Assembly: GCA_965113315.1 (NCBI GenBank)
Contig: OZ220365.1
Strand: one strand, 5' to 3'
Length of the DNA: 64,000 nucleotides
DNA from: Podarcis vaucheri
Lineage: Eukaryota
Shown here: in pieces, positions 241 to 45,039 of the stretch
Layout: every line of letters starts with the position of its first letter
How positions within the stretch are numbered: position 1 is the first letter of the stretch
Notes under the pieces: generated by a model
What the model saw: only the letters and a program-made list of their open reading frames with translations
What the model was told of the DNA's origin: nothing
Database searches by the model: none
Made by a program: the position numbers and the translations under genes

Positions 241-2761
241 TCTCAGTAGAGGGCAGTAGATATCTAAAAAGGTGTAGGCAACTGCAAGGCTGCCTGTTGC
301 AGAACCTCCCTCTAGCACTGTTTTTTGCAGCATTATGGATGAAAATAATTTGCAGTCAGAAACACATGGACTTCAGGTGAAGCTGTTGGTCTATACTCCT
401 GACAGTTACAACAAATGCCCTATTGAAAAACACTGACAGCTGACAATTTAACAACAAAACTCTCACAAGCATCACATAAATCAGGGGCAACAGAAGCAGG
501 AGGAAGAGGAAGAACAGCCCCTTTCACAGTTCAATTGCATCAAATGGGAAAAGAACATAACTTCCTTACCTTTGGTGTGATTATGCAACTCAGAAAGAGA
601 TGAATTTGGTACTCTAAAGCACTCTGAACACTATGTACTGCACTGCTTAGGATTCAAATTCTCTTAAGTACATTTCAGACAAAAGGAAGTTCACTTCAAT
701 TTGGCTTTGATAGCTTCTAATTTAAGACACTGAAGTTTCAGAGAAGTTTCAATGAGGCACTAAAACAGGGAGCGACAGAGTAAAGAGAAACCCCAGAGAT
801 AAAAAGAAAGGAGAAAAAGGAAATCATGCAATACTTTTAAAAAGTGTGTCCCAGGTAACAACTTAGGGCAATAAGTAGTCCTGACTCTGACATAATTGAT
901 CAACTGTGATGTCACAGAAACAACAAAACCTCACTGAAGTTGCCTTCAAGCTACTTGGGGATTGTTGCTGTTGCTGCTGCTAAATCCCACCACTGCAATG
1001 GTTAATATAGGAAAACTATGAACAGCAGCAACAGCAAGGAAAAATGTGTTTGTCTGTGTCTTGAAAGGAAGGAACAAAGATATTAAAAGGGGTGACTAAA
1101 TATGGGAATATATTTCTGCTACTTTCATCGTCTGAAGTACCACAACTCTTGGGAAAATAACCAGTTTGAATCAAACATTCAGTAGCCAGATACAGTTAAA
1201 GAAGAACTTCAGCTTCAAGCTAACCTAACCTGAACATGGTAGACTGGCCTTCTGTGACTTCACAAATCCATGAATGGGCTGTGGTTACCAAGGAAACAGT
1301 CTTTTAAGCTCTGTTATGTTCTTTGCATCGTCATACTCATTCTGGCCACTGGGAAAACATCTGGGGGGAGATGTACAGGTTCTGTGTTTAAAATATAGCA
1401 TCTCAAGCGCTGCTTCATGAGCAAGAGGGTGAAAAACCAGTAGCAGGGCTGGGAGCAATTCAGTATATTGTACAGAACATGTATGACTATGCCTGTTAAC
1501 AAAAGTCATGAATGCATGCTCAGTGGAGTGAGTTCCTGGCCTCAGGAAATGAGGTCATTCCCTTGAGGCCAAGGTGGTTTACCTGAAGAAGCTAAGAGAG
1601 GCAGAAAGGTTGGTGGATGAGGCCTTTGGAAACTTGATAGATGTGCCCTGCTCAGCTCCTCTGCTGTCACAGCAAGTGAAGGTCTCAGGAAAGCAGGGTG
1701 TCCCTTTGAGGGAAATTGTCCCTTTGAAAGGTCTCATTCCTTGGGGGACAAGAAGGTATCTTCTCATTCCTCTGCAGATGGCTTTTGGAAAAACTGTGTT
1801 GCCAGCTACACAGATGCTTGCACTCTTCACTCATTCCCCTTTGTGCTTACTGATCTAGAAGCTTTGATAATAAATCTCTTTTTTCCTTCCACAGCTTCCT
1901 TTTCTAACTTCACCAATTGGCACTGGCTCATGAATTACTAGCATTGCCTTACACACTCCAGTCTTATGATGGGAAGGCTCTTCATTAAACCACTTAAGAT
2001 TTTGATAATAAAAGGTCTGAACTCCAAATACAAAAGCAAACAGGTCCAAAAAGCTTTAAGACATACTTTAAAAGGCACAGAGCAAAGACACGAGGTGAGT
2101 AAAATTAATAGGGAATGTGGTCTGGGGGTAATCACCTGATATGAACTTCGAATAGAGTGATTAATGGATACACCAAAAGCTGAGTATTGTTGAAGAATAA
2201 TGTTGTATTTTTAAGTTGGAAAACAGATAACCAAGCTCTGTATGTTCTTTGTTAAAAATAAACGGATCATGTTCTGCCTTCTTCCACTGCCTGAATTATA
2301 AAGCCATAACATATAGAAAGATAAGAAATGACAGTTAACAGCCTGCTTAATTGCTTCTCAGCAAAGAAAGAGGTCTCTGCAGGAAACTCAGTCAAGCCCC
2401 TTGAGCCTTCCACTCAGAATCCCGTCCTTTGTGCCACATTTTCCGAAACAAATATATTATCCTTATCTGAGAGCTGAATTTCTTCTAAAAGGCAGGAACA
2501 AAAAATGATGTCTGACCAGTAGGGTGGCCTCATGAAATAGGAGGAAGGGCAGCTGTTCAGTGGGGATTCAAACCAAGACGACTGGGCTCCCTCACAGGCA
2601 AAACAGGATTCGGGCCTACATCAGATGTGGGGAAGGAAATGCAGGCTTCCCCAGTGGGAAAACTTTTTCTGCCCAAAGGCCACATTTCATTCTGGGGGAC
2701 AAGAGTTAGTGGTGGGCTGGGCAAGAGGCAAAAGTGGTCAGAAGCACTGGTGCAAATATTA

Positions 2762-3131
2762 AAGGTAAAGGTAAAGGGACCCCTGACCATTAGGTCCAGT
2801 TGTGACCGACTCTGGGGTTGCGGCGCTCATCTCGCTCAATAGGCCGAGGGAGCCGGCGTTTGTCCGCAGACATCTTCCGGGTCATGTGGCCAGCATGACT
2901 AAGCCGCTTCTGGTGAACCAGAGCAGTGCACAGAAACACCGTTTACCTTCCTGCCGGAGCGGTACCTATTTGTCTACTTGCACTTTGACATGCTTTCGAA
3001 CTGCTAGGTTGGCAGAAGCAGGGACCGAGCTATGGGAGCTCACCCCGTCACGGGGATTCAAACTCCCGACCTTCTGATTAGCAAGTCCTAGGCTCTGTGG
3101 TTTAACCCACAGCACCACCCGTGTCCCTACA
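2762..3131 (-). mobile_element. Sauria SINE (Squam1)
   Basis: GGGACACGGGTGGTGCTGTGGGTTAAACC head, (ACCTTT)n tail, TSD tgcaaatatta. Confidence 0.92.
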
Positions 3132-5770: not shown

Positions 5771-6253
5771 GAGATATCACCTTGCCAACAAAGGTCCGTA
5801 TAGTTAAAGCTATGGTTTCCCAGTAGTGATGTATGGAAGTGAGAGCTGGACCATAAAGAAGGCTGATCGCCAAAGAATTGATGCTTTTGAATTATGTTGC
5901 TGGAGGAGACTCTTGAGAGGTCCATGGACTGCAAGAAGATCAAACCAATCCATTCTGAAGGAAATCAGCCCTGAGTGCTCACTGGAAGGACAGATCCTGA
6001 AGCTAAGGCTCCAATACTTTGGCTACCTCATGAGAAGAGAAGACTCCCTGGAAAAGGCCCTGATGTTGGGAAAGATAGAGGGCACAAGGAGAAGGGGACG
6101 ACAGAGGATGAGATGGTTGGACAGTGTTCTCGAAGCTACCAGCATGAGTTTGACCAAACTGCGGGAGGCAGTGGAAGACAGGAGTGCCTGGCATGCTCTG
6201 GTCCATGGGGTCACAAAGAGTCAGACATGACTAAACGACTAAACAACAACAAC
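5771..6253 (+). mobile_element. 5'-truncated BovB (RTE-clade LINE) 3' end
   Basis: ORF 5826-6230 MYGSESWTIKKADRQRIDAFELCCWRRLL...LKLRLQYFGYLMRREDSLEK..LGKIEG is the BovB RT C-terminus; (CAA)n tail; TSD aaggtgggcaca (5759-5770, 6254-6265). Confidence 0.95.
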
Positions 6254-14313: not shown

Positions 14314-14371
14314 TCCCTATAGCATCTGCAGCTCACTCAAATTCCCCCAGACACCCTCTCCCTCCTCCTAG

Positions 14372-14738
14372 GTAAAGGTAAAGGTAAAGGTACCCCTGCC
14401 CGAACGGGCCAGTCTTGACAGACTCTGGGGTTTGTGCGCCCATCTCACATCTAGAGGCCGGGGGCCAGCGCTGTCCGGGGACACTTCCGGGTCACGTGGC
14501 CAGCGTGACATCGCTGCTCTGGCGAGCCAGAGCCGCACACGGAACGCCGTTTACCTTCCCGCTGGTAAGCGGTACCTATTTATCTACTTGCCCCCGGGGG
14601 TGCTTTCGAACTGCTAGGTTGGCAGGCGCTGGGACCTAACAACGGGAGCGCACCCCGCCGCGGGGATTCGAACCGCCAACCTTTCGATCGGCAAGCCCTA
14701 GGCGCTGAGGCTTTAGCCCACAGCGCCACCCGCGTCCC
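14372..14738 (-). mobile_element. Sauria SINE, distinct CpG-rich subfamily
   Basis: Same architecture with diagnostic changes; TSD tctccctcctcctag on both sides. Confidence 0.92.
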
Positions 14739-16105
14739 TCTCCCTCCTCCTAGAGAGGAGCAAAATCTCTGGGCAGAAAAGCAACATGAGGTGATCCAAG
14801 TATTTTCTAATATATTGCAGTCTAGCAAATGAAGACTCTGTGTAAAGAAGATTGTAATATAAAATGTTCAAACTCCAAATGCAAAAGCAAAGAGCTAGGA
14901 AGAAGATTAGCAACACCAGCCTCTGTTACCCTGGTGCTCTCCAAGTGTTTTGGAATACAAATCCCATCAGATTCCTACTCACCCAACATAACCATGCTCC
15001 CATTAGCCCCATCATCAGACAGTTGTACTGGCTGAAGCTGATGGGAACTGTAATCCAAAACATCTGATGGGCACCTCCACATAAAGGACTGGTCATGATT
15101 AAGAGCTCCAAGCACAGACAAATCCACAAGATAATGATATAGCATGAAAACTGAGAAGGAAAACATGCCCTTCAGAACCAGATTTGAAAAGACTGAAATC
15201 ATGGATACGAGGAATCCAAGGAGACGTGACAGTACATGTTAGCCAGTGGGTGAAGAACACTAATTGTCAAATCCTTCTCAACTTGCTAACCCAGCAAGGA
15301 AGAGAAGCAGACCTTTCGCAGCTCCGTTTTTGGGAAGGTACAAAATCGAAGAGCTTGAAATGTTCCCTTGAGGAACAGAGATCAGAGCAGCATTTCAAAA
15401 TATACACTCAGAAAATGATTCCTTACTTGAGAAGGCAACAGTCAGGCAAAACAAAAGGAAAAATGAAGTAAGCAAGGCACAGACTGTTCTGCTCTTGACC
15501 CCACTGCATTTTTAAGCTCCAGGTACACAACTCCAAGCAGGGTAAGCCAGAGTTCTGTTCAGTTAGAAATGTATGCAGAATTGCAGACTATTTTACAGCC
15601 CTCAGATAATCTGCACTTCATTTATTTAAGAGCATCAACGGTTTCTCACCTCTCAGATGGGTGATCTTAAGAACCAACTCAGAAGCTAGAGAATTATTTC
15701 CATCTAGAAGATGAACTAAGGCAGGAGGGACATATGTCTGTTTCTAGCATCTTCAAAACACTCACACTGTTTTTGTAGCTGGGACATGAATGTGAAACAC
15801 CTCTGACAGCCAGACTCCTGGGAGCTCTGTGCCTGCTGAATATATTTTGAGTGTCAGCTACCTTTGTGTGTAAACCCTGTGGTGGGATCCAGAGTCCTTC
15901 TCTATTTCCACTGGCATCTAGGACTTAGGAAGCCACCCACCAGATACCACACTTGGACCACACTGTTGGAGCTAGGCTTGTGTGGCCTGTGGCTGTGTTG
16001 GATTGGCCTTGGAAAAACAGCACCCCCTTCACATATCTTCCCCATACATGAGGAAACTGTAGACCAGGATAGCCAAAATGGTGCCCTCCAGTTGTTGTTG
16101 GAGTG

Positions 16106-19500: not shown

Positions 19501-20560
19501 ATAAAGCATACGGCTTCTGCTACAACAGAATGACATTTGACATGGGCTTAGCTTTATAGATTAGAATTTAATTTCCTGTTTTGCTTCTCTGCTCTCTGTA
19601 TTTCCACCCTTGCCCACAGCAATATATAAAGTTCAGTCCTCCTGAAGGATAAGATACCGCGCTTGGGAAAGGAACCAACACAGGTATCGGTGAGATTTCC
19701 TCCCCCGCAAGAACATCCTGTGTTCATCTTCAGATTCTAATCTTGTGAACTAAACTATGGTGCTTCTTTTAAATTCCAGCTCAAATTAGATCCCAAGGGT
19801 GGCAGTGGGGTGGGGGGGTGGGGAGAGCAACCTAGAATGTCTACGGCTTAAGAAAGACGTTTTCTAACCGTCTCAAAAGCACTCTCGAGAAAATGAAACC
19901 TAAGCTGCCTAACTGTAATTAAGTTTGAAAGTGAATATGGGAAAGGCAAGCAATTTATCTGCTAGCTCTGGTTCTTGTCCTGGGCACAGAGTCAAGGGAG
20001 TCAAAGGTAAGTGTTTGAAGGTAAGTCAAATCCTCTGTCCATTTGGCTCAGTCATGTCTACTCCAGCCAGGCTGGTTTATGAATAAGTTTTGCAGCAGTG
20101 ATGGGTCACAAAACCCACCGAACGAGGCAGCTCCACTTAGGAGCAGCACGTCCTGTTTTGCCACTTGAAGTGCTCTCTACTCTCTGTAAGTACCACAGGA
20201 GTCCATGGCCATTTTATACTAAACAATTACAACCCAAAACACCAAGACTTTTTCCATTTAAAGCCTTTTTCAATATAACCTAACTGCTAATGCATGGCTT
20301 TGTCTTCCAGAAGCAAATATGCTTTCGGGACTGTGAGTTGAAATTAAACAGAAAAAAAATGAAATAAAAACTTATGAAGCTGAACCACAATAGGAACATC
20401 TTGCTGCACAAATGGATAAAAGCAAACTTGTGGTGGTGAGGAATTCTTTCCCTTACCAATCATGCACATATTCCCTTATTTAAGGAACATTTGAATCCCT
20501 GACCTTTAAATATATGTCTCAAGGATTGAGGTTTTAGTTCCAGCCTATGCTATTCAGCTA

Positions 20561-20917
20561 GGGATGCGGGTGGTGCTGTGGGTTAAACCACAGAGCCTAG
20601 GACTTGCTGATCAGAAGGTTGGCAGTTCGAATCCCCGCAACAGGGTGAGCTCCCGCTGCTTGGTCGCTGCTCCTGCCAACCTAGCAGTTCGAAAGCACGT
20701 CAAAGTGCAAGTAGATAAAAAGGTACCACTCCAGCGGGAAGGTAAACGTCGTTTCTGTGTGCTGCTCTGGTTCGCCAGAAGCGGCTTAGTCATGCTGGCC
20801 ACATGACCCGGAAGCTGTTTGCCAGCTCCCTCGGCCAATAAAGCGAGATGAGCGCCGCAACCCCAGAGTCGGCCATGTCTGGTCCTAATGGTCAGGGGTC
20901 CCTTTAACTTTACCTTT
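20561..20917 (+). mobile_element. Sauria SINE
   Basis: Full length; TSD tatgctattcagcta. Confidence 0.92.
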
Positions 20918-21497
20918 TATGCTATTCAGCTAGAAACAGCTCCTTTTAGAAGCTGTAGCACTGCAGCTGCCTGCCATGTGGCTCTCATCCTACTCCGCCA
21001 TGGTAAGATTCTAGTCCTCACTATTGTGGGGTTGACTCCAAACTTTGAGAAATAATGGTGTATAAAGGACTAAAAGGAAGAAGCACCTCATTACATATGA
21101 GAGGAAGTTTTAAGACTGTGTGAATGGGGAAAGGGAAATGGAGCCGCTGGAGATGTCAGAGAGGCAGCCACACTGAACGATCCTGAAGGAAGCTTACAAG
21201 ACTTGCCTGCCCTTTCCCCACTATTATGATGAACAAGGCTTTCACTTTTTCAAAGACACATCAAGAACTCAAAAGCTGTGATGGTATTAATCTCCATTAA
21301 TTATTTTAATAAGCCCAATTCACATGTGCATTTTCAAGTGAGAACAGTTTCTCACTTCAAATGTCAACATTGGCTGTTCATTATGAGCACTAACGTCTCT
21401 ATGACCTTGGGAGTGAAGAGGAGGAATCCATCCCCTGCCCTGAAGGAACTATAATACCCAGATTTCCATTTTAAAAAGTAAGTATTTTTGTAGAAGG

Positions 21498-21554: not shown

Positions 21555-21787
21555 GAGTACCACCCTATAAAAGATAGCAGCTGATTGTCAGGAGTTGCTT
21601 AGCACCATGCGTGACACTTTCCAAGCCTCAACTCTCTGCGGAACATCTGCATCAGCAAAAACGGCTCACCAGGTAACACCAGGTGATAGACAAGTGAGCA
21701 GCCCCCACCCACCTGTCACAAGTTGTCCCACAGAGGATGGGGGATAAGAATTTGGCTAATTCCAGTTACCTATCCCTCATCTGTACA

Positions 21788-22141
21788 GGGACGCAGGTGG
21801 CGCTGTGGGTTAAACCACAGAGCCTAAGACTTGCCGATCAGAAGGTCGGTGGTTCGAATCCCTGTGATGGGGTGAGCTCCTGTTGCTCGGTCCCTGCTCC
21901 TGCCAACCTAGCAGTTCGAAAGCATGTCAAAGTGCAAGTAGATAAATAGGTACCACTCTGGCGGGAAGGTAAACGGCGTTTCCATGCGCTGCTCTGGTTC
22001 GCCAGAAGCGGCTTAGTCATGCTGGCCACATGACCTGTATGCCGGCTCCCTGGGCCAATAAAGTGAGATGAGCGCCGCAACCCCAGAGTCGGTCACGACT
22101 GGACCTAATGGTCAGGGGTCCCTTTACCTTTACCTTACCTT
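21788..22141 (+). mobile_element. Sauria SINE
   Basis: Near full length; TSD tatccctcatctgta. Confidence 0.92.
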
Positions 22142-22329: not shown

Positions 22330-24680
22330 AAATGGAAGCAGTGACCAGCATGTGTTTCTCACCAATATAGGCATGGCTCGTTTTTGCTTTACATTTGAAA
22401 TCAGAAAACTAAATATTACAGAATATTATTTAGGGGGGAAAGTGGCACCTAATTTGTAGGGTACTCAGACTGCACTTGTAAACTCACTTACTGGGGAGTT
22501 GTCCCCCTGAACACAGTAGGAGTTACTTTCAAGTAAACCATTAGGCCACAATCCTAGGTGCTCTTACTTGGGAATTTGCTTCAGCAGGACTTACTTCTGC
22601 ATAATCAGACATAGAATTGGGCTGTCAGTTTAGTAAAGAAGACAGTTTAGCAAAGAACACACAGCAAAACTATGCATTGTTTTAAAAAGCACACCATCAA
22701 TAAAGCTGAAATCATCAGAAATTAAGTTGAACATAAAATCTGTCATAAGTTCCTCTCTTTCCTGAATCACCCAAATGGAAAACAGTACAAAAACCTCACA
22801 ACAGAGGTTAACTAATCTGACAATTTAATATCACCTCTTCAAGAAAGGGGGAAATAGCCAATACTTTGTTTATTTGCCCTCTGTAGGTTTCTACTGGCTA
22901 GTAGTCCTAAAACTATGAGGCAGTTTTATTACAATTCTGACAGGATAGAGCAAAAATCTGACCCATCCCATTATCTCTAGCTGATCGCAATAGCTGGATA
23001 TTTAAATTACCCCATAGCAAATACCACCTATCCACTCTCAAGGGTCAAACGACACATGATATTTTGTTTTTTAAGTTTTACTTAAACAGTGGGAGCTTGC
23101 AGGGAGCAGAAATCTAAACTGGATTATAGCAGCAAGTGGCGGCAGAAAAGGGGTTGAACCTTCTGCCTGCCACTAGTTTCCCCATCTAAATTAGTATGTG
23201 GATGGAGCCAGAAACCAGAAGTTGACATGACGTCTATGATACGCAAGCGCAAAAGGAATTTAACTTCTGACAGACAAGGATAGCTTATCCTGGTCTAATC
23301 TAAGGTAATAAACAAAACACACACACACTTACACACCCTTATGACTCTAAGAGGCAGAGGGCAATTATGCCATTTTAACCGCCTGTGTAAACATGTCAGA
23401 GAGGAAGTACAAATGGCGGATCACAACGTGATCTCAGACAGCATCACATGATGCAACATAGTGAGATGCCAAAGTCTATCTCTGCCCCTGCACTGTAGAA
23501 TAAAGAGAAAGCAGAAAACAGAAAGCAGACAGCAATATACTCAAACAACTCCAAGACCAAATACACCAAATATGCAGCACTGTAGCAGGTGTATCTGTCT
23601 GTCAAACTGGAGCAGAATACATTTTAGACTAGTTTAAAAGAAAACACACACAGAGTATTCCAGAAATGGGCATGGCTTGTGAGAGTAATGCTGGCATGAC
23701 TACAAGGAAGGTGTCGTAATCCCATATGCATAGGATGCCAGATCCCAACATGACCTTTCTAGTTACGGGATGTGAAGTAACAGAGCTGGGGCATCTACTG
23801 CCCACAACACAAGAGAGCTGAGTTTGAGGATTTCTGCTTGGCAGTATTTTGGTGGGCAAAAATAACATTCACTTCAAGGGAAGTAGGGCAGTCTGTCCCC
23901 ACTATACTTCTGTTTCCGACCATGTGACTGGATTCCACCTGCACTGAGAAATTTCAGAAGGATTTCAGACTAGCCTAGTTGCTTTCTTGTAACTACAACA
24001 ACGGCCACATGACAACCCTATTTTGAGATGCTATGTTTCCCTATTAGGAGCTACTAGAAAACCCTTTCCAAGCCCTCAAGCAGGTTCCCCCACCCCACCC
24101 TCCCACCATGTATCCTTGGTAGGTGTTTGTGACGTGGGGTGTGCTACTACAAATAGAAAGGCCAATTGTTGGTTTACTCCAGAGGGAAGTGGACAACTCC
24201 CTGTTGGGTGCTCTTCTACTTATACACAGACTGAATGGCTTCAGTCAGGAAGCAGGAAGAGAGTTTCCTTTTAAAAAAACCCCCAAAACCCTGAGTTTTG
24301 TGCCATGGTTTGTACTTCTATTTCCAACCAAAATTTTTCATCTTAAAGCTTATTTTGAAACTGCAGACATGACCTCATCGATTCATATTAAACTCGGTCC
24401 TCTGTCCACCAAAATAGTCCTCTGCCCAGGAAGAGAGAACAATTGAGAATGAGATAGCACAAGAGATTGCAGTAAGTCACCTTTGCCAGACACGAAGCAG
24501 GGAATGAATGATTCAGCAAGGCAAGTCGCCAAATCAACTTGACCCAGAACTTTGTGGCACAAATATAACTTTAAGCCAGCACTGCCGCGTGACAATTACC
24601 CCTATGGGGAAGAATCACAGCTCAGTGGCATGGCTGGGAATGCCCCCGTCTCCAACCCTGGAGCAAACACTGCAAGTCCC

Positions 24681-25121
24681 TGTCAGGGAACTGCCATCGG
24701 CTCAGGGGCGAGAGGGGAAAAGGCGGATGGATTACAGAGAGCCCCCAAAGATCGTGGGAAGCAGCACTTCCTCAGCGGAGAAAGGAAGCCACGCCTCTAG
24801 TGAGGAGGAGATGCAGGGCTCGGGGGATGCAAGGCGGTGCCAGGACACCTTGCCTGAGCAAAGCGGGGAGGAGAGAGATCCCCCTTTACCCAAGCCGTCC
24901 TTGCGCAGTCCTTGAGGGGAGGCGTAGGCTGGGGATCAAGAAACTACTCTGCTGGGGAAAGTTTAAGGACCGCCCACTCTCAGATTCTGCTAGTGAGTGA
25001 GCAAGATATGGAATAGAGGCGTTCTGCATTGTAGAGGTTTTAGCACCGATAAAGCTTTTGAAAAGACCAGTGAGGCATCTTGCCTGATCGCTCTTGAGCA
25101 ACCTCATCGATACTCTTAACA
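24681..25121 (+). mobile_element. Gypsy-like solo LTR with ORF-bearing U3 (copy 1)
   Basis: TGTCAGGGAACTGCCATCGG...TTAACA; flanks gtccc/gtcac (5-bp TSD, 1 mismatch); homologous to 27160-27594. Confidence 0.78.
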
Positions 25122-25381
25122 GTCACTGAAGAAAATGCTAAGATGGACTGATGGTCCAATTTGGTATAAGGTAGCTTCCTATGTTCTTAATTCTAAACTT
25201 GAATGAAAAGGTGTCATGATCCCAACTCTTTGAAACGCAAACAAATCATTCATATTCAAGCAAACAGCTGCCTAGTATCAAGAAAATGTGCCTAGTGTGT
25301 CTTTTTCTCTACCTGGCTATTCTGGGCAGGGGAAGGGGAACATAAGTGCCAATGAGAGTAATATCAGTGACAGTCCTGTAC

Positions 25382-25556
25382 CTGTGTCGACTTCTGTGGA
25401 TGCCGGAGAAACAAATGTGCCAGCAGGACTAAGAATCTCATCACTTCTCCCAGTTCTGGGATTCAGCAGAAAACTTTCTGCACTTATGACGCATGGTATG
25501 TCCAGCAAGCTGCTTTCTCCAGACTGGCAGCTTGACGTCGCTTCGCTTCCTTCCAT
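25382..25556 (-). CDS. SHLD1: Shieldin complex subunit 1 (C20orf196/RINN3), first coding exon (exon 25382-25566, ATG at 25556, 58 codons + 1 nt)
   Basis: Acceptor ttgcctttgtttcag|TGG at 25566, strong Kozak CTTGCCATGG, donor CAG|GTACAG at 25382. MEGSEATSSCQSGESSLLDIPCVISAESFLLNP...SPASTEVDT aligns with the remembered human N-terminus MAARDATSGSLSEESSALDLPSACDIRDYVLQ...YSSDVDP, including the LD[L/I]P motif. It is head-to-head with GPCPD1, as on human 20p12.3. The terminal coding exon was not found in the window. Confidence 0.85.
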
Positions 25557-26079
25557 GGCAAGACCACTGAAACAAAGGCAAGAATTGTTTTTGCTCTTTA
25601 GATTTATTTTGACAATTCACAGCCCACTTTTTCATTTCAGGATGTTGTGTAGTATTCCACTCCACCCATTAGAAAATAGAAAGGGGGAAATACTCCAATG
25701 CAAGCCTGTTTGCAATGAAGTGATCTGGACATACATACCTGGGTGCAAGCCCCACTGAACTCAGTCAGTCTTCCAATTTTGAGTAAATGTAGAATGAACT
25801 GAAAAGCAGCACCCCACCTGCAAACTGGGAGATTTATTATGCTGACTATGGATTTCTTCGCATGGGAACACCACCTTGACATATTTTAGCTTGGAATTGT
25901 CTTAAGATACAAAGCTGGTGGTTTTCTCTGTTGGGGGAATACTGTGTACGGTACATTCTGGAAACATGCTATAAAGCACTCCCAGTGGTAAGAGGTCCAT
26001 AGACAGCACTGAAGTATTTTGTTTCCTTCATGGGAGGGAGAAGAGTACATTGGAAATGCATATTGCCTTTCTGATATTC

Positions 26080-26810
26080 AGAGGCTCAGCCATGCAGCAT
26101 ATAAAGCCATCCACAGGCTCAGAAGCAGTGCTGACATCATAATTAAAGTAGCCAACAAAGGAGGAGCTGACATCATGATGAGCAAGTTGTGCTACACAGG
26201 AGAGGCTAAGAGGCAACTCTCCAGTACTGCGTTTTAGAGGAACCTCTAAGCCAGACATGGCCAAACTTGACCCTCCAGGTGTTTTGGGACTACAATTCCC
26301 ATCATCCCTGACCACTGGTCCTGTTAGCTGGGGGTGATGGAAGTTGTAGTCCCAAAACATCTGGAAGGCCAAGTTTGGCCATGCCTGCTCTAAGCAGACT
26401 CAACTGAGGAACACCAGAAGGGAATACATAACTTGATAAAATAATTCCAAACAGATGTGCAGGACCAAATCTTTAAAGACACAATCCAGCAGCTTCTATT
26501 GAAAAACCTTTATCCTTAGGGAGCATCTCTTCCTGTATGAACCTGCCCAGACCATTAGGTCACCACTGGAGGCCCTTCTCTGGGTGCCTCCTCTGGGAGA
26601 AAAATGGAGGGTGACCAGACCGAGAGACTTTTCAGTAGAGGTCCACCTAATACTTACACAACTATCTTTTTGCATCCAGGTCAAGAATCTACTCTCTGGT
26701 ATTGTGGTTGTCAACTGGTGGTTTGGCCTTTAAAGCACTATGCACCATTTGTTAAAACGCCTGATTACCCATCAAGTTTATCAGGCACAACCACGTTTTG
26801 CACAAACTGA
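26080..26810 (+). mobile_element. Degenerate Penelope-like RT fragment, interrupted by a hAT MITE and an L2 piece (~26500-26650)
   Basis: LSHAAYKAIHRLRSSADIIIKVANKGGADIMM...Y..EAKRQLS resembles the PLE motif IIKPADKGGAVV..Y..EA.RQL; a later SFIR...L.KL remnant follows. Confidence 0.7.
26252..26387. mobile_element. Palindromic hAT MITE (GGACTACAA..CCCATCATCCC family)
   Basis: TIRs CAGACATGGCCAAACTT; perfect TSD ctctaagc. Degraded relatives at ~3867, 7579, 12810, 14920, 16658, 18961, 35660 and 56215. Confidence 0.88.
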
Positions 26811-27159
26811 GAGCCAAGATCAGAATACGTATGGCAGCTACTCAAAATAATTTCTTTACCTAACTCCAAAAAGAAAAGAAAGATGAATTATCTGTTCCAA
26901 TGGGGTATGAGCGTCTGGAGTAACATCTGGAGGACCACAACTTTTCCAGAAGAGCAATCTCAAAGTAGGAAAAGCCTGTACACGGAAGTATTATGCGCAG
27001 CCCTAGTGCAGGCACAAAAATCATGCATGGGAATCATACTGCTGACAGTAGGGAGAATGTATCACAAAAATTGTGAGAGCGCTTCCTCATAGTTTGAATG
27101 CTGGGACGGATAGATGGGTACAAACTATGCTGCCCTAGCAGAGGCCCTTAGAAGAGTGG

Positions 27160-27594
27160 TGTCAGGGAACTGCCATCGGAGCTAGAAGCGGAGGGAAGGC
27201 TCCAGAGGGATGGCGGAGAGGGTCCCAGTAGGGAGAGAGGCAGCCCGTCCGCTGGGGAAGGAAATCAGCGTAACACCAGTAGAGAAGGGGGGCAGATGGG
27301 GGAATCGGAGAGGAGGCTCCAAGACTCCTTGCCGGAGACCAGCGGAGAGAGTACGGGTACTCCGCTGCCCACACCTTCCCTGCGCAGAAGACTTCCGCGC
27401 AGGGAGAGTAGGAGGAGACTTGGCGTCAAGGAACTTTTGTGCTGGAAGAAGTTTAAGAAACGCCCACTGACGGATTCTGCCAGCGACTGAGACAGTCACG
27501 ATGCTGGAGTCTGTTCAGTCAGAAAGGGTTTAACCAGGTAACCTCGCCAGGAGTGGTGGCAACTTACGCACGAGCAACCCCTAAACCCATTACA
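27160..27594 (+). mobile_element. Gypsy-like solo LTR with ORF-bearing U3 (copy 2)
   Basis: TGTCAGGGAACTGCCATCGG...TTACA; flanks agtgg/aatgg; frame 27161-27490 fully open. Confidence 0.78.
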
Positions 27595-29905
27595 AATGGG
27601 AATCAGTGGCCAGAATTTGTGGGGAAAACCGACACATCAGAAGTAATCTTTCATAACTGTATTATGTCACCCCTGTGTTTGAGAATATACAGACATATGG
27701 TTCTACAATGCCAATGACATTCTACCAAGTCGGAGAAGACGACACCCAAGAGCCCTTTTCCAGCACATTGCTATTGTCAAGCAAGTGAGAACAATTTACA
27801 CAATTAGCTTAGAGAAAGCATTACGCCTGCATGTGCTTTTGTATTTTCAACTGTCTGGTATGGTGAAAAGGGGTTCCAATATTCTCTGTTAGACCCACTC
27901 CACCCCTACAAACAAAAATGATTTTAAATAAAGACACAGAGAGAGATCTTTTCTATTGGCTCCAGATTGTGTGTGTGTGTCTGCTTCTACAGAATGCTGT
28001 TGAACTTGCCCTTTGCATCACACTTGCTAGTTAACTCCACAGTATCAGTTTTCTGATCAGAACATGATCGGTTTACTTGACCTAGAGAACGGAGGCAAGG
28101 TTAATGCTAATAAGAACAGTTTCCGTGTTAGAGAACAGCGACAGGGGTGAGGCAGGAAAAGCAAGTTATTGTCAAATGAAACTTTGGGTGAATACATGGA
28201 TGCATGAGGTCCCAAGTTAAGTTACCAGATTCTTCACTCAAAAGGCTTGACAGCAAAGCCTGAGACCCTCTGAAGAGGTGCTGCCATTCAGAGCAGACAG
28301 TACCAGGCTAGATGTACCAATGGTCACAGTCAGCATAAGGCAGCATGTGCTCATATGATTTCTGAGGTCTGGGATTTATATTAACAGGTGGTCAGTTTTT
28401 TGAGAACATAAACTACAGCCATTTCTCAATGAATATTTTGCCCAGTTCTTGTGTTTCATTGAACTAAACTAAATCAGCACAAAAGCATTGTTTAACTGAG
28501 CAATGTTTTTGTGCCAATTCAAAAAAAGTCTACTGTGAACAGCAGTAACCAAATCATCATGGTTTAATCTCATTCACTTGCCTTTTCTACTTCTCTAAAA
28601 GGAGAGTAGTAGAAAAGTTAAGCGACACATGAATCAGAAGAAGCAGGGGCAGAAAATGGTCACAAAGCTGATTGGGGATTAGCTGGAAAGCAGCTGATTT
28701 CGTGGAAATCTAAGCTGGAGCTAATGTTTTTGAAGAGCTCCTTGTTTCACTCACACCGAAGTGGCGAAGATTGCTCCGACATTTCGACTGTTCTTCCAGG
28801 AAACCTGCCAAAGACAAACAAGCTAGCTGCGTGCTCTGACAACACCTGTCATGCAAACAGCCGCCTTCCAAGAAATCCAGTCATGCTCTTTGGAATGAAA
28901 TAAACAGACAGAGTAAAACTTGACCATCACGGCGCCAGGCACAGCGTGACCTTTCCAAAGCATCTGTGTGCTTCAAGTCCACATATGCCCTAGTGTTTAT
29001 CAAATCCAGGACAAAGAAGACCATCACCTTCAGGAATAAATCAGTGATATATTGCTTTGTGAAGCAGGTGTTTCCACAGTTCTAATCTGCTGATCAGGCC
29101 CTGCGGACTCATAGCATTCCCAGAGTGGAGGAGCAAGGTCAACTGTTTGTGCTTCATGCTTAAAGCATGGACATCTTGTCCTCTGTAACAGAAATGGCTA
29201 ACACATCTGATCAACCAGCATTCAACCCTACAAAAAAAACGTAACTGCTCTCTGGCTACAAATGCATATATAGTTGAATGGGGCTGGGTCCTCCTCATAG
29301 CTGTTGCTGCCCCCCTCAATCTAAATTAGTGAGAAGTACAACAAAGTAAGGACATGTATGAACTAATTAAAATTTGAAGGCTCTGTCTAGACTCACCCGT
29401 GCCAGGATCACTGGGGGGGGGGGGCGGTTGATCCTTAGTTTCACGAGGCCATGCTATTCTTGCAGAAAGGAATGTTCTCTTTTATGGACACCCTTCAATC
29501 ATGGACAGCTGAACCTGGAAGACAGCAAACACTTACTGATTGTGTACCCTAAACATCTCAGCTGACAGTAATCAAGACACCTAAACGTTATATGTGCGCA
29601 TGTATAGCCTCTTCTTGGCACCCATTATATGATTTGTCATAGTCTGAAGACCAAGCACAGAAAAGGACTGCTAAAACAGGAAATTAATATTTCATTGTCA
29701 TTAGAAGGGCATAAATATGTTCTGCATGCTTGGCTGAAGCAAAGAAATTAAAGGGGGTGCAGTTTTCCAAAACCTTGAAAGCCCTGTGACATGGCAAGCT
29801 GCACCTGTGGAGATTCCCCCTACCACAAATCTGTTATATACACAGAATGTTGATGCCCTAATGCTGAATAGATGCCTCCCCACTCAATTGTAAAATTGGT
29901 TTATT

Positions 29906-41395: not shown

Positions 41396-43445
41396 ATATA
41401 AAGGGTTTGTTAAACCTGAAACAACTGCCCCTTTGAATTTGGTTACCATATTCTTGCTTTGCTTAGGTCTTTATAATCACCTGTCTTCACTGCAAGTTTT
41501 TTCTTGTGCGTTTTTGTATTCTGTGGTTGCAATTTGTCCAGTTCCTCCATCTCTTGTTTGGTGGACACAAGAAAAAAAATCAATAGAGCTAAGGTAAACA
41601 GTATCCTTGCTTTGCTTTTTACGTCAGCTCTGCACAAGCTTTGGTGTTAACTGTTGGGAGGGTGTCCACTGGGCAGAGATGGTGGGACAGGACAAATTAT
41701 TACAACCACAGAATAAGACAAAAACAGCTATTAAGACAGAAGAATTTATGGTATAAAGCAAAGCAGGACTATTGAGACTTACTACTGCTCACTCGCTCTC
41801 ACCTAAAGAAGAAAACAGTGCAATTTTTGCTATACCTCCCCAATCACACAGACACATCTAGTGTGTGCAAACCAAAACTGAGCACCAGATGAAACAAAGG
41901 ACAGATTTGTATAGCTGATATGGGCACCATCAAAATAAAAGGGAAATGTTAATCAGCAACTGCAGACTTTGCCTTTGTTGTTTTTCCTCTACTACATTTC
42001 ATGCAAAGGTCACATAATAAGTTGTTTGGGCAGCAAGCACTCCCTGGATTTGTTATGCAATAGTCTCTCAGCAAAAAGAAGAAAAACAACCCGTTTGCCT
42101 TGTAAGGTTTCAGTGATCCAATCCAAATGACTGCAGAGACAGCTGGATTGTATTCTAAATTATCCCTTGCAAACTATAAATCAAAGTGTTTGGGCCAGAA
42201 CAGCTAACAATGCTCATCTTCCCTGCAGTTCTAAAGGGCTGTGTTCATGGCGCAACTCCTGGACACAGCTCTGGATACTGTTGATTCTGTAACTAGGAGT
42301 AACTTTCATCAATTTAGGCTGGGGCAACAGCTGCAGTTTCTCTTGGCCACATCTAGATGGGACTTCCTGGAGGTAGTATATATAGTCATCATGACCAGTA
42401 ACCATTGATAGCTGTGTTCTCCACGAATTTAATCTCCTTTAAAGTCATCCAAGTAAAGTCATGAGCTAAGTAAGGGCACGACCAGTGTTCAGTAAGTCAT
42501 CGTGACCCTTGTGCAACCACTCTCACAACATTTCCAACTCTCAGGGGAGAAGTTATGAGATGATAATGCTGTTGGTACATTTTCCCAACAACAAAATATT
42601 TTGCTTTGTGTTTTGGGGGAAACAGTATTTCCCCCGATAAAGACCTGATGATGATGAGAGTTCTGGATTTCTTGAATCAGCTTCCTAATTTCTGAGCATA
42701 TTTATTTTTAAAAATGAAAAACCCTTCAAAGGCCTGCATTTTCCCCAGCAACAAAATATTGTGCTGGCAGACTGTGGTATCTATCCTATGGTCTGGATCA
42801 CTGAAAAGCATGAGTTGCAATTGTCCTCCTGTTCCTATCCATCCACTTCAAAACATGATCATAACTAAAATAAATAAAGAAATAAATCTGTGCCATTTGC
42901 CTGCCGGTCTCATTTTATGAGCTGCTGTAATAGTCCATGACACAGACCTGACAAACCACAACACCGCAGGAAGTTGGTATACTATGCAGCTATTTTGCAA
43001 GGCTACTTGTTACCCTAGCAATACTACACTGTAAACAAAGATCTCAGGAATTTAGAGTGAAACAATCAGAGCTAAACAAGTAGGACTTTCCAGTATGTGA
43101 CCATACTAGAAAGCTGCAGACCTTTTTGAATACTTGAATACTTCCAGAATTTTTTAATTATTCACCCATATTGATTTTGCTTTGGATTCTTGGTTACGCA
43201 TAATATTTAAAACTTATTTGTTTTCACTGCTTAACAACCAGAGCTACAGAAATCCATACAAATGTGGGATGAATGGCCCAACATCTGAAACGCTTGCCAC
43301 TATTAATCTGATTGTCATTTTCTAACTCCATTTTTCTTCTTTTCAAGAAAGAATATGTCAATAGAGGAAGGCTTTATAAACCACTGCTACCCTTTTTGGC
43401 CAAAAACTAAACAAGCCCAATTAGAAAATCCTACACTAGATATTA

Positions 43446-43795
43446 GGGACGCGGGTGGCGCTGTGGGTTAAACCACAGAGCCTAGGACTTGCCGATCAGA
43501 AGGTCGGCGGTTCGAATCCCTGCGACGGGGTGAGTTCCCATTGCTCAGTCCCTGCTCCTGCCAACCTAGCAGTTCGAAAGCACGTTGAAGTGCAAGTAGA
43601 GAAATAGGTACTGCTCTGGTGGGAAGGTAAACGGCGTTTCCGTGCGCTGCTCTGGTTTGCCAGAAGCGGCTTAGTCATACTGGCCACATGACCCGGAAGC
43701 TGTACGCCGGCTCCCTCGGCCAATAAAGTGAGATGAGTGCCGCAACCCCAGAGTTGGTCACGATTGGACCTAATGGTCAGGGGTCCCTTTACCTT
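43446..43795 (+). mobile_element. Sauria SINE
   Basis: Full length; TSD tacactagatatta. Confidence 0.92.
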
Positions 43796-45039
43796 TACAC
43801 TAGATATTAAAAGCCTTTCCCCCAACCTCTTGCACAGAAACCCGTAACTTAATTTATTAGTCAATAACTATACAAAGGCCAAAGCATGTGACTGTTCTGT
43901 TCATGGAAGACAATTTTTTATGTTCATGAATGCCTTGGTGCAAGAGGTAGTTCAATGGGAGCAAAGCTTGACTGGGTTGGAAAATGCATGTATAAATTTA
44001 TTTAAAAATGGATCCCTTCTGGCATCATTATGTGGGATTCAATTCTGTTTTGTCAAAAGCAGCTTGTTGAAGCACTTTGCAATACAGAGAAAGGCAGCAT
44101 ATTATTCTTGTTTTTCAAAGACTGATAATTGGGTGATGCCAACATCCATCATTTCAGATTTAAAATCCCTTTTAAAGTGAGATGCATTTTAATTAATTTT
44201 CCACAGCACTCGTTATTATATCCTGTGTCTCATTTTATGTTTAATTAACATCACTGCTAGGCTGACCTGTCAAACCAGCAGATCAGATTCCAGGGCCTCA
44301 TATAAGCTTCTAAAACAGATTGGTTGGGAGGAGAAGATCAACTGACAAACAAGCAGGGCCAGGAAAGAAATTCATTTGGTTCGCATTTTAATGCAAACCT
44401 AATTCATACTTTCTGAAGCAGTGTACAAACTGAAACACAGCTAGCTATCCTTCAAAATCACACTTCTTCGACTTTTCCTTTTTTAAAAAATCACAAACTG
44501 ATGTGAACTGAACTTAAGAATGGGAAACTGAAGAACTGAGAGAAACCAAAATTGCCAGATTTGTCAATTCCTAGTAGTGCTCTGGCTCCGTATTTTGTCA
44601 AAGTGGAAGCAGAAAATCAGAGTTTTTCATTCATTCAATAGCACATTGAAATGAACATTTGCATGCAATTTGTAAACGGCATATAGCATACCAATGCCAA
44701 CAGTATGAGTGTATTGTGATGCTTTGGGTGTGATGCATAAGTACGTAGTTTAATCATTTTGGTTTACGGTAAGAATGTTGATACTGGTTTGGATCTCTAG
44801 TCCATCAAATGCATTGCCTCTTAAAACAGGTATCACTAGATGCTTATGAGGAAAGGTTGGGGAAACCTCAAAGCATTTATAATTTGATCAGGAAGTTAGG
44901 ACAGATATCCATGATAGTTATAGCAGGAAGATCCAGCTCTTTGGTTCCTACGTCATTCAAGACTTGGTTCTGTTTCGGAATCTTCACTTAGTAGTGCAAA
45001 GACTCCCTAGTCCTGTAGTTTGACAAAACACAAATTATA

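Follow-up and report, generated by a model that had tools for sequence, protein, structure and literature searches.

Solo LTRs in Podarcis vaucheri contain a reading frame that very probably encodes the C-terminal tail of a Gypsy chromovirus integrase

The window, a 64,000-nucleotide stretch of Podarcis vaucheri contig OZ220365.1, contains two solo LTRs on the plus strand with a likely host-gene exon between them. The features, in window coordinates, are:

24676..24680, no strand: left target-site duplication (TSD) of copy 1; the right copy is at 25122-25126, with one mismatch
24681..25121, plus strand: solo LTR copy 1 (441 nt), with chromovirus (Sushi-type) ends
24682..24906, plus strand: copy 1, codons 1-75 of the putative integrase tail (predicted disordered linker; codons 51-75 under purifying selection)
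24914..25000, plus strand: copy 1, final 28 codons of the tail motif with the TGA stop, moved out of frame by an 11-nt loss
25382..25567, minus strand: likely host-gene exon, with AG/GT ends, an open frame and full coverage by two runs guessed to be RNA
27155..27159, no strand: left TSD of copy 2; the right copy is at 27595-27599, with one mismatch
27160..27594, plus strand: solo LTR copy 2 (435 nt), with an empty site in run X8
27161..27490, plus strand: copy 2, open putative integrase tail of 109 codons plus TGA
27350..27487, plus strand: basic motif conserved at the C-terminus (final 46 codons), of net charge ~+10
27425-27454, plus strand: predicted helix within the basic motif, residues 89-98

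The two LTRs have the termini TGTCAGG…CTTAACA and TGTCAGG…CATTACA, both of which match TGTYANR…CNTNACA, the attachment motifs given for Sushi-type chromovirus LTRs in Table 3 of PMC3601003. Each copy is flanked by its own 5-bp duplication, GTCCC/GTCAC for the first and AGTGG/AATGG for the second, in agreement with the sequence-only reading, which had described two solo LTRs with different TSDs. The empty site of copy 2 is present in a contig of run X8 (organism F) that lacks exactly 440 nt, equal to the 435-nt LTR plus one 5-nt TSD; this gap fixes the boundaries of copy 2, and its insertion is therefore polymorphic or species-specific. Both LTRs are antisense to the likely exon that they flank, an arrangement consistent with insertion into a gene body at this single locus. 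A very abundant palindromic short repeat also lies between them (26252-26392). Elsewhere in the window, a ~370-nt interspersed repeat occurs in five copies (2758-3129, 14370-14739, 20559-20920, 21787-22140 and 43444-43798), and a fragment at 5808-6227 resembles the terminal part of a reading frame from an RTE/Bov-B-type LINE.

In both copies the frame starts at LTR base 2 and aligns without gaps across 75 codons, after which copy 2 stays open to codon 109, while copy 1 is 11 nt shorter near 24910-24913 and picks the frame up again to end at the same TGA, all as previously described from the sequence. This 11-nt loss has no counterpart in four listed contigs of other copies, and thus is likely decay of copy 1 alone. 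Among related proteins the tail is 100–115 aa when complete and its linker differs in length, so gap-free colinearity is not a trait of the family. The chance of finding no stop, given base composition, is 0.087 and 0.019; as the DNA is T-poor, openness is weak evidence of coding. The frame and its stop occupy ~330 of the 435 nt, and neither TATA nor AATAAA occurs in the remaining 3' part of either LTR; the earlier placement of the frame inside U3 is thus not established. Some contigs of the copy 1 family have a variant at ~25048 that yields a canonical poly(A) hexamer, at a distance of ~70 nt from the end of the LTR; the stop would then lie ~50 nt upstream of the hexamer.

Comparison of the two copies provides evidence for purifying selection on parts of the frame. 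First, 21 of the last 28 residues are identical, nine of them through synonymous codons, a count made earlier and confirmed here; mismatches at codon positions 1, 2 and 3 number 8, 1 and 14, and none of 20,000 randomisations attained 21 identities. Second, dN/dS is 0.15 in these 28 codons (Fisher P 3e-4) and 0.16 in codons 51–75 (P 3e-4), rough ratios because dS, at 1.3–1.6, is close to saturation. Third, the shifted sense frames of the last 28 codons give 0.6 and 7.4. The antisense frame that shares third positions gives 0.27 over the same codons and was rejected as a signal of its own, being read as a shadow of the sense frame. Codons 7–50 yield 0.56, which is not significant (P 0.14), and the first 20 nt, which include the integrase attachment end, are identical between the copies. 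Purifying selection is therefore detected only in codons 51–75 and the last 28, ~55 comparable codons; the earlier claim of selection on the frame holds for these two segments and not for codons 7–50.

Relatives of the frame link it to integrase. The copy 2 peptide as query found three proteins among 518 candidates, and onward searches found 27 among 6,567 and three among 2,335; P0004 and P0005, two of the four matches of a 1.84-billion search, proved to be repeat proteins and were set aside as chance matches. Scans of metagenome and viral contigs yielded no relatives, as none of 594 and none of 44 pattern matches were confirmed. The best of the three proteins, P0001, has 474 aa and is encoded on a 1,528-nt contig. 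It comprises, in order, the last part of an integrase core, an SH3/GPY-F domain (134–195), a chromodomain (221–269), an acidic region and the complete tail (373–474), with 64% identity to copy 2 across 109 aa. The 474 codons take up nearly all of the contig, which suggests an unspliced frame. The chromodomain matches PF00385 at 43.3 bits against a cut-off of 25.1, and SH3_Tf2-1 is also matched. In fold comparisons of related proteins, the Ty3 integrase 7q5b is the best match and the chromodomain matches those of HP1/CBX. The precomputed Pfam sets of P0006–P0008 contain the Gypsy Pol domains RT, RNase H and integrase; these Pol assignments describe the related proteins, not the solo LTRs themselves.

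Five Podarcis Pols (P0001, P0006, P0007, P0008 and P0033, the last four named Podarcis muralis Gypsy) have a Gly/Glu-rich stretch followed by Asp and VREL. In three of the five, P0001, P0006 and P0007, the sequence extends as far as the same motif at the C-terminus; the records of P0008 and P0033 end earlier. The order in the Podarcis Gypsy Pols is integrase core, GPY/F, chromodomain, acidic region, a stretch like a polypurine tract (PPT) and VREL. All nine junctions that were examined allow a T-ending codon just ahead of the tail, and the seven preceding codons can be 16–18 of 21 purines, as back-read from protein sequences, several of which are automatic gene models. Among the contig loose ends listed, most of which belong to a repeat near 26.26–26.39 kb, none displayed the PPT junction. 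The Gly/Glu-rich residues would then correspond to the PPT, and the first T of the LTR to the third base of the Asp codon, so that the frame would open at base 2. The frame thus very probably corresponds to the C-terminal tail of Pol/integrase in a Gypsy chromovirus of lizards. Since it runs on from integrase in the related proteins, neither a separate start codon nor splicing is needed. The suggestion of an integrase extension in a lizard Gypsy lineage is thus borne out: pol is continuous at the protein level through the putative PPT into VREL in the five Podarcis Pols, and the frame, which has no ATG at its start, would be entered from the integrase upstream.

The chromodomain of these Pols is degenerate. 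In family A, the lineage of copies 1 and 2, the middle Trp of the aromatic cage is kept and the third site is Glu in 6/6 proteins; the first site is non-aromatic in four, His in one and Tyr in one. Family A does not belong to group I, which has three cage aromatics, and five of the six proteins have the plant group II pattern, in which the first and usually the third aromatic are lost and the middle Trp stays. Sister family B lacks the middle Trp as well (kept in 0/4). The other chromodomains retrieved have three aromatics in 18/18 cases (17 by script, one by eye); P0031 lies outside this count, as its sequence ends before the chromodomain. The ten degenerate-cage proteins (P0001, P0006–P0012, P0032 and P0033) comprise families A and B, which form one branch (support 100) inside a squamate group (99) in a quick tree of 26 rows with no named reference element among them; in it the lizard family is placed within the Gypsy Pols of Anolis, Naja and other Podarcis elements, adjacent to those of fish and frog. 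According to PMC3605345 (Weber et al. 2013), group II chromodomains were until then known from plants only. The tree suggests that the group II-like cage loss in lizards arose in parallel to plants and not by common descent.

Between the chromodomain and the PPT lies a second candidate element. A putative helix, linker and FxGF motif follow the chromodomain in 9/9 family A and B proteins tested versus 0/18 intact-cage relatives, with shuffle P values of 5e-5 to 0.011, although the pattern was defined after the data were seen and the nine proteins represent one origin. In P0001 the motifs lie at 277–298 and 325–344, with helices at 277–285 and 325–332, each just before FxGF, predicted at low to moderate pLDDT; equivalents occur in P0006–P0012, P0032 and P0033, all outside the window. 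The motif occurs twice in family A and once in family B. Strict FxGF is found in 5/5 second motifs and 2/6 first motifs of family A, the first F being replaced by L or M in the other four, and in 4/4 of family B, where the linker is Ser/Thr-rich, not acidic. FxGF is also found in the RT domain of most Pols, in a basic context, and alone is thus not diagnostic. A PDB sequence search with the FxGF region returned only two matches, both to papillomavirus E1 at E 1.1, and none of the known TND-interacting motifs (TIMs), and an Atlas search gave scores of at most 0.82 and no TIM-bearing family. TIMs are defined by a helix with F/V/L/I anchors, an acidic Ser/Thr linker of 8–16 residues and FxGF, a feature of all known partners of LEDGF/HRP2 (PMC9987994, 10.1101/624023). 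The motifs after the chromodomain fit this definition at the sequence level, and they resemble the published TIMs of JPO2, MLL1, IWS1 and JIL-1 in combining a predicted helix, an acidic or Ser/Thr linker and FxGF, in tandem. Unlike those TIM/IBM proteins, however, the lizard motifs lie in a retrotransposon integrase and are candidates for binding.

The tail itself consists of a variable linker, predicted to be disordered, and a basic motif of ~46 residues in which a single helix is predicted. Full-length tails have a net charge of +9 to +11 in the last 45 residues, and 15 of the last 28 columns are invariant among six sequences, including R-R-R, K-x-L-L-C-W, F, P-L and D-S-x-S; the earlier description, a disordered linker with a basic CW-containing tail, is accurate. 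Two structure predictions both place a helix on the motif and leave the linker unstructured; helix pLDDT is 77–84 in the single-sequence model and below 50 in the full model, in which the tail is predicted, at low confidence, without confident docking on the rest of the protein. Between subfamilies, identity is 61–63% in the last 46 residues, modestly above the linker (50–54%) and far below the integrase core (85–86%), which counts against a specific role of the motif. Patterns like a classical bipartite NLS, whose two basic clusters lie ~10–12 residues apart, are present in copy 2; in copy 1 the second cluster contains G and D, which breaks K(K/R)x(K/R), and the hydrophobic core is kept. The invariant residues, most of them hydrophobic, would suit a motif for binding more than a simple NLS. 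Pfam contains no family that covers the tail, the PDB gives no sequence match up to E 10 and Atlas no usable match, and the motif that was not recognised from any named family has thus remained without a match in all three.

Families A and B share only low-complexity matches in their tails. Two other Podarcis chromovirus families have long unrelated tails after junctions of a similar kind: up to 209 aa after D/VRGSG in P0009, P0011 and P0012 (the slash marks the start of the tail), and 117 aa after G/VMAW in P0015, where the tail ends Arg-rich. Judging from their junctions, these four tails are likely also LTR-encoded. As the cage of P0015 is intact, a long tail does not require cage loss.

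The lizard family resembles several known systems in part. In CRM group A elements, Pol continues into the 3' LTR, where the CR motif is encoded (PMC3059260, Neumann et al. 2011). The lizard family is like them in that Pol, here at the protein level, runs on into the 3' LTR and has one conserved motif within an integrase terminus that otherwise varies. However, in CRM group A the CR motif takes the place of a chromodomain, whereas the lizard family keeps a chromodomain fold upstream of the PPT; and CRM elements are centromeric elements of plants; the host here is a lizard, and both copies flank a likely exon. The earlier comparison with CRM therefore stands for layout and not for membership, as a chromodomain is kept ahead of the PPT and the LTR motif is probably not the CR motif. 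Reina Bingo1-4 and Bingo7 of sugar beet share with the lizard family a chromodomain upstream of the PPT, an ORF that enters the LTR and a group II chromodomain without the first and third cage aromatics; they are plant elements, though, and the accessible text of PMC3605345 describes no conserved LTR-encoded motif under selection in them. In layout the lizard family thus resembles CRM and Reina, yet it is not CRM. With vertebrate and fungal Sushi-type chromoviruses it shares the Pol domain set, GPY/F plus chromodomain, and the LTR end motifs, and differs in its degenerate cage, its FxGF motifs and the 175–250 residues that follow the chromodomain anchor, compared with 55–96 in 15 of 17 intact-cage relatives; the exceptions are P0015 (182) and P0018 (211, likely a chimeric model). 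The Ty1 integrase end contains a bipartite NLS that holds the host-binding peptide TD1 in its linker (PMC7459421). It is similar in its disordered C-terminus and in the short conserved peptide that two basic clusters flank there, but Ty1 belongs to the Copia superfamily and its tail is not LTR-encoded, so that the likeness is one of analogy only and no sequence similarity is claimed.

By this analogy, it is plausible, at a probability of roughly 0.6, that the conserved basic end of the tail serves the integration complex as a module for import into the nucleus and tethering to chromatin. Pol would be read without a stop through the PPT into the 3' LTR, where the frame would supply the integrase C-terminal tail. 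Reverse transcription would place the coding stretch in both LTRs, and solo LTRs would keep the frame without a start codon, although they would not themselves be expected to translate the tail. Within the tail, the short hydrophobic helix (x-K-x-L-L-C-W-x-x-F) would lie between an Arg-rich cluster and another basic one, a layout like that of the Ty1 integrase end. With the cage aromatics lost, targeting may have moved from the chromodomain to the tail and to the FxGF motifs upstream of the PPT. A more tentative proposal, which we hold to be somewhat doubtful, is that a lacertid lineage dropped methyl-lysine reading, that tandem FxGF motifs instead bind LEDGF/HRP2-type TND domains and so steer insertion into transcribed gene bodies, and that a new LTR-encoded basic motif adds import or a second tether. 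If true, a retrotransposon would have reached the lentiviral tether by convergence, through a different, host-like interface that mimics cellular partners.

DNA binding is common among integrase C-termini, and the tail end is strongly basic and Arg-rich. It might accordingly bind nucleic acid, such as element RNA or cDNA ends, or serve particle assembly or integrase multimerisation. Such a role appears rather unlikely, as the invariant hydrophobic helix and Ser/Asp end look sequence-specific and not merely cationic, and in the full model, itself of low confidence, the tail is not confidently docked on the rest of the protein.

That the tail is a mere spacer, left after the stop drifted into the LTR, with the conservation reflecting promoter or enhancer elements in the DNA, is improbable. 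It would accommodate the lack of significant constraint in codons 7–50, the attachment site within the first 20 nt and the unrelated tails of the sister families. However, of the 23 differences in the last 28 codons only one is at a second position and 14 are at third positions, and DNA elements would not give this pattern together with the ratios of the shifted sense frames; for the last 55 codons this reading is largely refuted.

An accessory protein like nef or sag, made from a spliced transcript that enters the LTR frame, had also been proposed. The missing ATG would suit it, as would the frame pieces in the host gene models P0002 and P0003, where splicing into the frame is at least predicted; but integrase continuity in five related proteins explains the absent start without splicing, so that the proposal is not needed and seems quite improbable. 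Release of the tail from integrase as a free peptide by the element protease, to which the long disordered linker ahead of the motif would lend itself, is very improbable, since that variable linker shows by eye no conserved cleavage-like site.

Extension of Pol into the 3' LTR is already known from plant CRM and Reina elements; the motif itself matches no family or structure searched. No description of the lizard tail, or of FxGF in a retrotransposon integrase, was found in the mostly openly accessible literature covered, and the lizard families themselves may already be catalogued in repeat databases. To our knowledge, insertion-site choice of vertebrate Gypsy elements has been little studied. 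For import and tethering as for gene-body targeting, this lineage offers short candidates, an LTR-encoded selected motif without family match and FxGF beside a decayed-cage chromodomain, and it provides an animal parallel to the solutions of CRM and group II in plants. For annotation it also matters that an LTR can be protein-coding over most of its length, as pieces of the frame are present in two Podarcis host gene models. These are the C-terminus of P0002, with 91% identity to copy 2 across the final 46 aa, and the N-terminus of P0003, P. muralis models of a phospholipid flippase and a Gla-domain gene, respectively; the pieces reflect either annotation artefact or exonisation.
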